From: a plasmid
Reading direction: 5' to 3' (one strand)
DNA: 4,234 bases
Assembly: GCF_056746865.1 (NCBI RefSeq)
Contig: NZ_JBWKMP010000009.1
Shown here: in pieces, positions 1 through 4,234 of the stretch
Layout of the letters: each line of letters opens with the position of its first letter
How positions within the stretch are numbered: the first letter of the stretch is position 1
Notes under the pieces: model-generated
Database searches by the model: none
What the model saw: the letters and a program-made list of their open reading frames with translations, nothing else
Told to the model about the DNA's origin: nothing
Made by a program: the position numbers and the translations under genes

Positions 1-50
1 GCACACAATCGAAACGAAGTGAAGATTGTATAAGTGCGCACTTCGTGATG
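1..50. other. oriT: Putative MOBQ-type origin of transfer (oriT): nic-like core TAAGTGCGC at 31-39 inside a perfect 12-bp palindrome AAGTGCGCACTT (32-43), flanked by short inverted repeats
   Basis: Seen in sequence: TAAGTGCGC at 31-39 matches the nic-region core I recall for RSF1010/R1162 oriT (GTAAGTGCGCCCT). Inverted repeats at 14-21/39-46 (ACGAAGTG/CACTTCGT) and 5-10/24-29 (ACAATC/GATTGT). Position fits a divergent mobA-oriT-mobC arrangement if the window is circular. Recognition is from memory; no alignment was run. Confidence 0.45.
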
Positions 51-132: not shown

Positions 133-408
133 ATGAGCAGAACGCTCGAACAGAAGATTGCCGAAGCTGAGGCCAGATTACAGCGCCTGAAGGCGAAGAG
201 CCGGAGCCTGGACACTGCGCAAAAAGTCATTGTGGGAGCAGCCATGCTGGCGAGGGTACGGAGGCCGGAAGAGGCGCAACTGCGTGCGTTCCTGCTCCAG
301 TTCCTGCGAAAGGAAGTCACAAGACAGGCCGATGTGAACCGGCTACAACCACTGATTAACGAGCTGGAGAAGCTACCAAGACCACCTGCGAAACCGCAGA
401 ACGGATAA
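133..408 (+). CDS. mobC: MobC/TraD-family relaxosome accessory protein, 91 aa (MOBQ mobilization accessory protein)
   Basis: ORF with an SD. The N-terminal coiled-coil-like segment (EQKIAEAEARLQRLKAK) and central motif QKVIVGAAMLARV resemble RSF1010 MobC (about 94 aa; recalled motif RKVLVGAMILAKV). Small size and apparent divergent placement relative to mobA across oriT fit. Homology is recalled, not searched. Confidence 0.75.
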   Translation: MSRTLEQKIAEAEARLQRLKAKSRSLDTAQKVIVGAAMLARVRRPEEAQLRAFLLQFLRKEVTRQADVNRLQPLINELEKLPRPPAKPQNG

Positions 409-1968: not shown

Positions 1969-4188
1969 TCACATACTCATGCCCCGGTAATGTCCGGGGC
2001 GTCGTTGTTGTTGCCTGTGCTGTTCGTCCCGCTTCCATTCATGCCAGGTCTGATTAAATCCGAGTTGACGGAAGAGATAATCCGGCATCTCTTCCGGTTT
2101 GTGGACAGCAGCCAAAAGCCTGTCATGATGGCCTTTGAGCCGGAACTGCATCAGGTGCGGTTCCGGTGGGTACGGAGTATCCGCATCATGGTTTATAGCT
2201 TCTCCGTAACCTGCCAGGCATACCCCGTTCTCCGTGATGGTGCTGACTATCAGATGACTGTAATCCGGCGACGGAAGCGCAAGAACGGGACGCAGCCCGT
2301 CCTCCTGACGCACAAATCCGACAAGCACTTCCTCCGGCCCTTTGCACAACAGCAGATTCAGCGTCCTGCTGTTTCGCTCTGTCGAAAATACAACGGGCAT
2401 GAGTTGCTCCGGTGCCGCATAAGCGGTGACGTCCACCCGGTGCGCAGACGGCAGCGGAGAGGCTACGGGCCTGCGGTCGTCGCTGAAATAAAAATTATCC
2501 GGCCAGTGATGCGGCAGCGCCGGAAAACCGTAAGAGGGCCACCCCTGGCGCATCTGTTCCAGTACATGCCGGACCGTCGCACCGGAATACATTCTCACAC
2601 GCTCAGGCCGCGCCATCGTCTCATGAGATTCTGGCATTCCCTCACGTATATCCGAGACCATCACAGCCCCGCCTGGCGACAGGTAAACATTCACCGGGTC
2701 ATGAACACTCTGGGGGTAATGCGCCAGCTCATCACCCCATACCGTGAATTCTCCGGCTCTGTTACTCAGCATCATGTAGCGGGTTATCCTGCCCGTTCCC
2801 GGCTCTCTGGCACGCCCCAGCCCCGTAATAACCCCGGCTAATGCCGTTTCACGGCTCAGGCGATGGTTATCATGGTGTTTCAGCCGTGCGTCATATTCCT
2901 GTTCCTTCCGGCGCGCTTCCGCTTCGGCTTCCTCCCTGCGCCGCTCCGCTTCCCGTGCTGACAGTTTTTCTTTCAGCTCTGCCATTCCCGGCGAAATCCA
3001 CGTATTCCACTGCGTTTCAAAGGCCTGACGACGGGCGGGAATGTCCCGTTCTTTCACGGCCCTGTAGGTGCGGCGAAGAGATTCAATCTGTTTCTCGAGT
3101 TTCCAGAAGCGGAGTTGTCTTTTGCGGTATTCCGGTTCAGCCCATGTCATCAGGGGAAGCTCTGACAGGATGGACGCTACCGGACGGGCTTTTCTGAGTC
3201 CGGTCATCTCTTTTTCGAGAATATCCCGCTCTTTCACCAGCGCATTCCCCTCACGTTTGATGTCGTTTGCCTTCCCGTTCATCGCCACGAACTCCGGTGT
3301 CATCTCCCATGCGTTCCCGCATTCCTGCGGCAGTGTGGCAATGAATTCCCGCAGGGTATCCGCTGAGGCATTCGCGGCGGGAATGGTCAGATTAAGGGCT
3401 TCCGCTGCACGACGTGCGGCATCGCTGAGTTCCCGTTTCCGCACGTTCTCCTGTACCTGGATGACTGCCAGCCTTGTGCGGGAAACCTGTATTTCCAGGT
3501 TAAGGCTGTTAATCAGGCGGTTCTGCTCACCGCGTTCTGTTTCCATGCCCCGTTTTTCCATCGCACAGGCAGCCTTTCCGAGGTGAAGGCCCGGCGCTTT
3601 CTCCAGTCCCTGACGCTCGTATGAACGATGGTCTATCTCTTCCTGGTAGCCGGCGTTCGCAAGCGCTCTGTTCGCATGGTCAGCCCATGATGCGCGCCAC
3701 GTCTCGGCGAGTGCCCGGTCGTTCCAGTCCCTGACCTTTCCTGCGAATCCCGTTTCCCCGACAGCTCTCGTGGTCAGCATGATGTGTGCATGGGGGTTGG
3801 TCCGGTCCATATGATGGAACGCCACATCGGCAATCATGCCCCGACTGACAAAGTTTTCCCGGACAAAAGCGAGAACGGCCTCCCGTGCGGCCTCGCGGGA
3901 AATCTCACGGGGAATGGCGAGTTCAATCTCCCTTGCCAGCTGGGAGTTCCGGCGCTGTTCGGCTTTCTCGACCGCATTCCAGAGAACGGAACGGTCACCA
4001 CACCAGGACGGTGCATTCACAGGGGTGAGAATGACCGCATCATCAACGCCGCGTTTACGGGTGTAATCGTGGGTTAATCCGGTACGGTCATCGGGTATGA
4101 CAGAGCCGGAACGGTAGGCAGCAGAAGCAACGGCACTGTAGCCGTTTTTTCGCGAAATGATTTTCATGCTGAGATGATAAATCGCCAT
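1969..4188 (-). CDS. mobA: MOBQ-family relaxase MobA (MobA/MobL-type), 739 aa: N-terminal relaxase domain, charged coiled-coil linker, about 295-aa C-terminal domain of unknown function
   Basis: The N-terminus MAIYHLSMKIISRKNGYSAVASAAYRSG closely resembles RSF1010 MobA (MAIYHLTAKTGSRSGG...), with the catalytic Tyr at residue 25 (codon 4114-4116). His-rich metal-binding motif HHMDRTNPHAHIM is at residues 125-137 (about 3778-3816). The charged linker spans residues about 405-440. The C-terminal domain (about 1972-2856) was not recognized. Confidence 0.9.
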   Translation of the reverse strand: MAIYHLSMKIISRKNGYSAVASAAYRSGSVIPDDRTGLTHDYTRKRGVDDAVILTPVNAPSWCGDRSVLWNAVEKAEQRRNSQLAREIELAIPREISREAAREAVLAFVRENFVSRGMIADVAFHHMDRTNPHAHIMLTTRAVGETGFAGKVRDWNDRALAETWRASWADHANRALANAGYQEEIDHRSYERQGLEKAPGLHLGKAACAMEKRGMETERGEQNRLINSLNLEIQVSRTRLAVIQVQENVRKRELSDAARRAAEALNLTIPAANASADTLREFIATLPQECGNAWEMTPEFVAMNGKANDIKREGNALVKERDILEKEMTGLRKARPVASILSELPLMTWAEPEYRKRQLRFWKLEKQIESLRRTYRAVKERDIPARRQAFETQWNTWISPGMAELKEKLSAREAERRREEAEAEARRKEQEYDARLKHHDNHRLSRETALAGVITGLGRAREPGTGRITRYMMLSNRAGEFTVWGDELAHYPQSVHDPVNVYLSPGGAVMVSDIREGMPESHETMARPERVRMYSGATVRHVLEQMRQGWPSYGFPALPHHWPDNFYFSDDRRPVASPLPSAHRVDVTAYAAPEQLMPVVFSTERNSRTLNLLLCKGPEEVLVGFVRQEDGLRPVLALPSPDYSHLIVSTITENGVCLAGYGEAINHDADTPYPPEPHLMQFRLKGHHDRLLAAVHKPEEMPDYLFRQLGFNQTWHEWKRDEQHRQQQRRPGHYRGMSM

Positions 4189-4234
4189 TTCTGCCGTAAT
4201 GCCTTTTTGCCGTTTTCTTTTAGCGTCGCAGACC

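Follow-up and report, generated by a model that had tools for sequence, protein, structure and literature searches.

The 178-bp region between mobA and mobC (positions 4189 to 4234 joined to 1 to 132) is very probably the origin of transfer (oriT) of a MOBQ4 mobilizable plasmid with a ColE2-type replicon, and the nic region described in an earlier reading of this DNA (hereafter, the initial annotation) lies inside it. This oriT is an already known element and has the ordinary layout of a hairpin followed by a nick site on one strand.

The plasmid and its mobA-mobC intergenic region

The window (the whole stretch of DNA analysed, 4234 bp) was a complete circular plasmid. A search of 72,556 plasmid records with megablast gave full-length matches at 97-100% identity to many 4234-bp plasmids of Escherichia coli and Salmonella that are typed as mobilizable (MOBQ); 6.7-kb colicin E2-type plasmids matched at 95% coverage in the same search. 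Many of the 4234-bp copies from E. coli and Salmonella were identical plasmids, of human and poultry sources. The genes and the two halves of the probable oriT were the following:

133 to 408, plus strand: mobC, relaxase accessory protein gene (homologues annotated as mobC in RefSeq plasmids)
1522 to 614, minus strand: rep, encoding a ColE2-type Rep
1969 to 4188, minus strand: mobA, encoding a MOBQ4 relaxase of 739 amino acids (open reading frame list plus profile and structure matches)
4189 to 4234, plus strand: mobA-proximal 46 bp of the probable oriT (open reading frames, circular plasmid matches and PMC6856555)
1 to 132, plus strand: mobC-proximal 132 bp of the probable oriT (open reading frames, plasmid matches and PMC6856555)

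MobA matched the Pfam MobA_MobL model (E=1e-69) and passed the cut-off of the NCBIfam MobQ equivalog (259.5 bits, cut-off 200). Residues Y25, E87, E89, H125, H133 and H135 were all present (6/6), and the protein matched the solved relaxase domains of NES (4HT4, E=2e-30) and R1162 MobA (2NS6, E=6e-11). Its N-terminal domain showed 84% identity to those of 4.07-kb MOBQ41-type plasmids and 98-100% identity to those of ColE2-type plasmids. Rep contained the Replicase (PF03090) and PriCT_1 (PF08708) domains. MobC was not matched by any of the Pfam and NCBIfam models searched, and aligned pairwise to RSF1010 MobC with 35% identity over 66 amino acids (E=6e-7); this match contrasts with a statement in PMC6856555 that MOBQ4 MobC proteins lack homology to other accessory proteins.

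Neither the open reading frame list nor the plasmid matches showed genes for colicin, immunity or lysis on the 4234-bp plasmid. A colicin operon is said in PMC6856555 to be carried by all MOBQ42 plasmids, and the window, with a ColE2-like Rep and without this operon, falls outside the definition of that sub-group: it is a cryptic plasmid with a ColE2 replicon, colicin-less and related to the 6.7-kb colicin plasmids.

The two mobilization genes diverge (mobA on the minus strand, mobC on the plus strand) and the distance between them is exactly 178 bp. The plasmid being circular, the oriT carries on from position 1 back into 4189-4234. The MOBQ4 family was defined from plasmids of this kind by Garcillan-Barcia et al. 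2019 (PMC6856555), where mobilization through the 178-bp mobA-mobC intergenic region is reported to be supported by experiment (pRC7/pRC8), and sub-fragments 1-70 or 71-178 alone are reported to give no mobilization. The same article reports a 500-fold preference of the MOBQ4 relaxase for its own oriT in cis, and a decrease in transfer of only 0.6-1.5 log upon mobC deletion, which makes MobC helpful, but inessential. Its main text contains no nick mapping for MOBQ4, and discusses neither the nick position nor the palindrome considered below. An earlier classification (PMC3832669, citing Francia 2004) had already placed ColE2-P9 with the RSF1010-like MOB modules and gives NWACCNNTAAGTGCGCCCTYNN as the consensus. 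The 178-bp region was 92-100% identical to the MOBQ4 family; matches to the intergenic region included MOBQ41-type plasmids with 82-92% identity, and 672 PLSDB records matched a 268-bp query spanning the oriT.

In window coordinates, the boundary between fragments 1-70 and 71-178 corresponds to 24/25, within the right hairpin arm described below, if the fragments were numbered from mobA, and to 62/63 if they were numbered from mobC. If the latter numbering applies, an inactive fragment contained the whole hairpin-nic unit, and this would count against the account favoured here.

A promoter scan found no sigma-70-like site in the intergenic region, and the conserved 3' flank of the nick was dropped as a candidate promoter element. 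An inverted repeat (ACGCGATAAAA/TTTCATCGCGT, 91-119) just upstream of the mobC start was flagged as terminator-like on the minus strand. This repeat could be a regulatory or accessory-protein site, and lies in the half of the oriT that is missing from the orphan copies discussed below.

Hairpin, core and predicted nick site

The 9-mer TAAGTGCGC, which the initial annotation had singled out as a nic-like core, was located exactly at 31-39. This sequence was expected 0.016 times per strand and was present as a single copy in the window; its position in the mobA-mobC intergenic region is meaningful because so few copies were expected. The assignment to a MOBQ-type nic core within an oriT was borne out by the match of the core to relatives, by the 178-bp MOBQ4 region and by the MobQ relaxase. 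The proposed comparison with the RSF1010 and pSC101 oriTs gave an identical core and a hairpin 5' of it, and the fallback suggestion of "simply a divergent oriT" was in essence correct, the region being the oriT of the MOBQ4 family. The elements of the nic region were the following:

4234 and 1 to 4, plus strand: outer arm (C4234)GCAC, complementary to GTGCG (34-38) of the nic core
5 to 10 and 24 to 29, plus strand: nick-proximal hairpin ACAATC/GATTGT with the 13-nt loop GAAACGAAGTGAA (11-23), presumably bound by the relaxase
14 to 21, plus strand: left arm ACGAAGTG of an 8-bp inverted repeat, within the hairpin loop and unconserved in relatives
30 to 38, plus strand: single-stranded recognition core ATAAGTGCG, predicted nick G38|C39
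32 to 43, no strand assigned: perfect 12-bp palindrome AAGTGCGCACTT
39 to 48, plus strand: 3' flank of the nick, CACTTCGTGA, kept within MOBQ4 and homologous to CCCTTCGG(G) of the wider family

Related oriTs were collected from plasmids matching the intergenic region (MOBQ41-type and tiny plasmids), from RSF1010-like, pSC101 and pSK41-type plasmids, and from contigs that encode MobA relatives at 49-68% identity and were reached through the protein only. Genome contigs were also scanned with the 14-mer TTGTATAAGTGCGC; the hits were mostly chance matches in unrelated genomes, and about 20 loci with hairpin-core architecture were kept. The right stem end of these loci was biased by the search pattern, and the relatives found through the relaxase protein were therefore added. 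Stems were tabulated sequence by sequence with a script; a MAFFT alignment placed the left hairpin arms out of register on account of the differing loop lengths.

The core was identical across the 31 aligned oriTs; TAAGTGCGC was common to RSF1010, its IncQ relatives, pSC101, the pSK41-type plasmid and 25 other relatives. A hairpin ended 8-11 nt (mostly 9) 5' of TAAGTGCG/C in 31/31 tabulated oriTs, and 9 nt separated the hairpin end from G38|C39 in the window. Nineteen different arm pairs, with complementarity kept through compensatory changes, were present among these oriTs: ACAAAC/GTTTGT, ACAAACTC/GAGTTTGT, ACATCGC/GCGATGT, ATACCAC/GTGGTAT and ACAATTAC/GTAATTGT, for example. Five further relatives, four of them reached only via the protein, had the same layout (e.g. 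ACATTGC/GCAATGT in Carnobacterium). In RSF1010, cleavage was mapped at TAAGTGCG/CCCTCCC; the substrate CAGTTTCTCGAAGAGAAACCGGTAAGTGCG/CCCTCCC is cut 8 nt past the hairpin, and of the stem it is the base alone that is required (PMC4814116). Homology with RSF1010, together with gene order, predicts a nick between G38 and C39 of the plus strand.

The hairpin at 5-10/24-29 and the circularity of the window had both been overlooked in the initial annotation, which placed the nick in or beside a hairpin formed by the 14-21/39-46 repeat. That repeat is unconserved, and the conserved hairpin ends 9 nt upstream of the predicted nick. Only TAAGTGC was found at the alternative nic location suggested near 417-430. 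This partial core (GCGTAAGTGCCACA, 417-430, with TAAGTGC at 420-426) lies just after the mobC stop codon and was kept in the one relative checked (L136).

Almost every non-IncQ relative had CGCAC immediately 5' of the hairpin. This motif pairs with the GTGCG stretch of the core; no mention of this outer arm was found in the MOBQ literature examined. The cleaved 3' product, which ends at G38, folded into an 11-bp stem with an ATAA bulge (-7.5 kcal/mol, z=-3.9).

By homology, MobA would act as a single-tyrosine HUH relaxase (Tyr25) that recognises, on the plus strand, the base of the ACAATC/GATTGT hairpin (5-10/24-29) together with single-stranded ATAAGTGCG (30-38). It would cut between G38 and C39, remain covalently attached to the 5' end at C39 and pilot the plus strand 5' to 3' into the recipient through the type IV secretion system of a helper plasmid. 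Transfer of this strand 5' to 3' from C39 would mean that mobC enters first. MobC would assist without being essential.

A stretch of about 70 bp (window 4215 to 48) was all that was shared with plasmids of 1.5-2.7 kb lacking any relaxase. These plasmids carried ColpVC and Col(MP18) replicons (L003-L008, H183-H185) and were typed as mobilizable by MOB-suite. Retention of this stretch alone supports, at the level of sequence, the hairpin-nic segment as a functional unit. Orphan oriTs are known on rolling-circle plasmids (pBuzz, as summarised in PMC9282650); the orphan units described here sit oddly with the 500-fold cis preference reported for MOBQ4 relaxases. One of the copies (L005, on a 2031-bp E. 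coli O145 plasmid) had lost GCG exactly at the predicted nick (TAAGT, a 3-nt gap and CACTTCGTGA), which has presumably inactivated the site.

A 9-nt tandem duplication, (G)CACTTCGT(G), which can be read in the register GCACTTCGT or CACTTCGTG, starts at G38/C39 and was found in 10 records (L008 and L011, at the equivalent of window 38-47; H176-H185). The backbones involved were MOBQ41-type plasmids of 4.07-4.1 kb and plasmids of 1.5, 2.7, 6.8 and 11 kb. The duplication may have been left behind when a relaxase terminated aberrantly, 9 nt beyond the nick, and gives circumstantial support to the nick position G38/C39.

Palindrome, inverted repeat and nicked strand

The sequence symmetries reported in the initial annotation were all recovered: the perfect 12-bp palindrome AAGTGCGCACTT at 32-43; the 8-mer AAGTGCGC on both strands (plus strand at 32-39, minus strand as the complement of 36-43); and the perfect 8-bp inverted repeat ACGAAGTG/CACTTCGT at 14-21/39-46, with a gap of 17 nt. 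First-order Markov simulations gave a mean of 1.24 perfect 12-bp palindromes per 4234 nt (probability of one or more, 0.74); AAGTGCGCACTT was the sole one in the window, and a palindrome as such is not unusual at this length. A perfect 8-bp inverted repeat with a loop of 3-40 nt had a chance probability of about 0.07 in 178 nt, which is weakly significant when taken alone.

Comparison of the flanks points to an incidental palindrome, one base away from a widespread nick-site sequence. The commonest 3' flank in the wider family was CCCTT(CGGG), and in the corresponding 12-mer (AAGTGCGCCCTT) 5/6 pairs were self-complementary; the palindrome would be a by-product because AAGTGCG/CCCTT is already 5/6 self-complementary about a GCGC centre and a single C-to-A change at +2 (A40) completes it. 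MOBQ4 and one Desulfatitalea MAG had 6/6 pairs; the CCCTT class had 5/6, and RSF1010 and pSC101 had 4/6. Flank position +1 was always C, and +2 was C, A or T among relatives and A in MOBQ4. The Desulfatitalea MAG with the same CACTT variant encoded a MobA with only 44% identity to that of the window, so the variant probably arose more than once. CACTT was fixed in all the sampled relaxase-bearing MOBQ4 plasmids (window, L010, L009, L137, L001 and L011), and selection on the palindrome, or on A40 itself, is possible given this fixation.

The same fixation, and the location of a perfect 12-bp palindrome within a divergent intergenic region, would be expected of a site for a dimeric double-stranded DNA-binding protein (MobC or a host factor) that opens nic or regulates the mobA and mobC promoters; accessory proteins are thought to bind oriT and to favour a single-stranded nic (PMC6856555). 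However, the left half of the palindrome is the universal nic core, which is also present where the accessory genes are unrelated (the "TraD" of pSC101 showed no similarity), and RSF1010, with a homologous MobC, has only 4/6 palindrome pairs. The small cost of mobC deletion to MOBQ4 transfer (0.6-1.5 log, as reported in PMC6856555) and the promoter scan, negative for sigma-70-like sites in the intergenic region, also argue against this role, which we consider very unlikely. A function for the self-complementarity of the nic region as a whole (palindrome plus CGCAC arm), either as an extended hairpin or cruciform gating the relaxase or as a platform for a relaxase dimer on both strands, is highly unlikely. 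If it were true, the loci L073, L074, L118 and L090 would be two-way origins of transfer, and the finding would be relevant to transfer termination by single-tyrosine relaxases.

The 14-21/39-46 repeat could itself act, alone or pseudoknotted with 5-10/24-29, as a structural switch gating the relaxase, with the nick at a loop-stem junction. Its 3' arm begins precisely with C39, immediately past the predicted nick; folding of the uncut 80-nt strand gave it as the lowest-energy pairing; and RSF1010 MobA cuts nic sites placed in hairpin loops, with reduced yield (PMC4814116). Substitutions at +2 and +8 with respect to the CCCTTCGG class both extend the complementarity with the loop, from 5 to 8 nt, and could hint at selection for this pairing in the ColE2-type lineage. 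However, a complementary run of 8 nt between loop and flank was confined to ColE2-type plasmids and a number of orphan copies, and the run was shorter elsewhere: 6 nt in pMCR-4.2_AB243 (L001), 4 nt in MOBQ41 plasmids and L137, 3 nt in L003 and L004, and 0-3 nt in the wider family. No compensatory changes in this pairing were found among the tabulated oriTs, and the chance probability of about 0.07 given above also weighs against a switch. The fold energy of the uncut strand equalled that of shuffled sequences (z=-0.10), so thermodynamics alone singles out no structure. Because the loop contains AAGTG, a partial direct copy of the core, it is complementary to the palindrome's right half, and this accounts for most of the 8-bp repeat; ACGAAGTG was also present in the loop of pSC101. 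Such a switch is very unlikely.

The initial annotation had raised the possibility that the symmetry makes the nicked strand ambiguous. Ambiguity is unlikely because the orientation of the core is shared with relatives and no hairpin is present on the minus strand at the spacing needed; the choice of strand was inferred from homology and gene order. The plus-strand core (31-39) reads toward mobC and away from mobA in the window. The same orientation was found in RSF1010 (mobC at 519-803 and the core at about 425 of the record, on the same strand), in two IncQ relatives, in pSC101 (where mobA and the core are on the minus and plus strands, respectively), in all 9 relatives found through the protein and, overall, in every relative with mobA adjoining the oriT.

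Cutting of either or both strands by MobA, with an ambiguous transferred strand or two-way transfer, would be compatible with the 8-mer AAGTGCG/C on both strands and with the behaviour of RSF1010 MobA, which needs the stem base plus the core and tolerates nic in hairpin loops (PMC4814116). It would also be compatible with the loci L073, L074, L118 and L090, where complete copies of TAAGTGCGC flank one shared hairpin on both strands. These symmetric relatives, however, have the full outer arm, and the window only CCGCAC. The minus strand of the window reads 5'-ATGCACGGCACATCACGAAGTGCG/CACTTATAC, and its core copy (GAAGTGCG) has G instead of the T conserved in the family at -8, with no hairpin ending 8-11 nt upstream of it. 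The fold of the minus strand used only the unconserved 14-21/39-46 pairing and was no better than shuffled sequences (z=-0.69). Together with the orientation of the core in every mobA-adjacent relative, these data make cleavage of both strands very improbable. The three alternatives (a protein-binding palindrome, a loop-flank switch and cutting of both strands), even when taken jointly, are improbable in comparison with the conventional oriT, nicked on the plus strand.

Symmetric oriTs, in which the outer arm GCGCACTTA provides a full core on both strands, were observed in Ruminococcus sp. YE71, in another MAG and in a Desulfatitalea MAG (L073, about 1840-1900; L074, about 4200-4260; L118, about 5380-5440; L090, about 4460-4520). 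No discussion of a symmetric two-strand core was found in the MOBQ literature examined. In the Ruminococcus-type loci the oriT was not upstream of the relaxase gene; it lay on the strand of that gene, about 1.1 kb past the gene's start.

Comparison with known systems

Earlier work had delimited the oriT of these plasmids to 178 bp and no further; the probable nick (G38|C39, plus strand) and the recognition hairpin are now placed within it. MOBQ4 plasmids abound in E. coli and Salmonella of clinical and food-animal origin, and the unit of about 70 bp is present on plasmids without a relaxase, so a precise oriT helps to predict which small plasmids are mobilizable. Beyond annotation, the result is of little consequence.

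Nothing substantive distinguishes the window from the oriTs of MOBQ4 plasmids (ColE9-J for the ColE2-like MOBQ42; pIGWZ12 and pE2022_4 for MOBQ41): the 178-bp region and the divergent mobA and mobC are the same, and the window plasmid lacks the colicin operon of MOBQ42.

RSF1010/R1162 (MOBQ1) shares with the window the core TAAGTGCG/C, a hairpin 5' of the core, a core reading toward mobC and a homologous MobC; its relaxase domain is distantly related to that of the window MobA (2NS6, E=6e-11). The RSF1010 hairpin has 10 bp, a 3-nt loop and a spacing of 8 nt, whereas that of the window has 6 bp, a 13-nt loop and a spacing of 9 nt. The 3' flank is CCCTCC in RSF1010 and CACTTC in the window, and RSF1010 has no CGCAC outer arm.

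pSC101 has the same core (TAAGTGCGC), a nearly identical loop (GAACGAAGTGA) and the same orientation with respect to mobA. Its outer arm is complementary to the nic core, with a full AGGGCGCAC opposite GTGCGCCCT. It differs in the stem (TTTCT/AGAAA), the spacing (11 nt), the 3' flank (CCCTGA) and the accessory gene, which is unrelated; its MobA is 26% identical to that of the window. The near identity of loop 11-23 to that of pSC101 (L012, 4077-4087), despite different stems and relaxases with 26% identity, suggests that the loop is under selection or that segments of oriT were exchanged, as far as sequence comparison can tell.

The NES oriT of the staphylococcal MOBQ plasmids pSK41, pGO1 and pLW1043 resembles the window in having ATAAGTGCG/C right after the hairpin and a CCCTT-type flank, and NES is the closest solved structure to the window MobA. 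Mimics of NES-family oriTs have a variable hairpin and an invariant core (PMC4993578). The NES oriT differs from that of the window in its Gram-positive host, in being part of a conjugative plasmid, in its hairpin (GCGATCG/CGTTCGC) and in the C at +2, which leaves the palindrome at 5/6 pairs.
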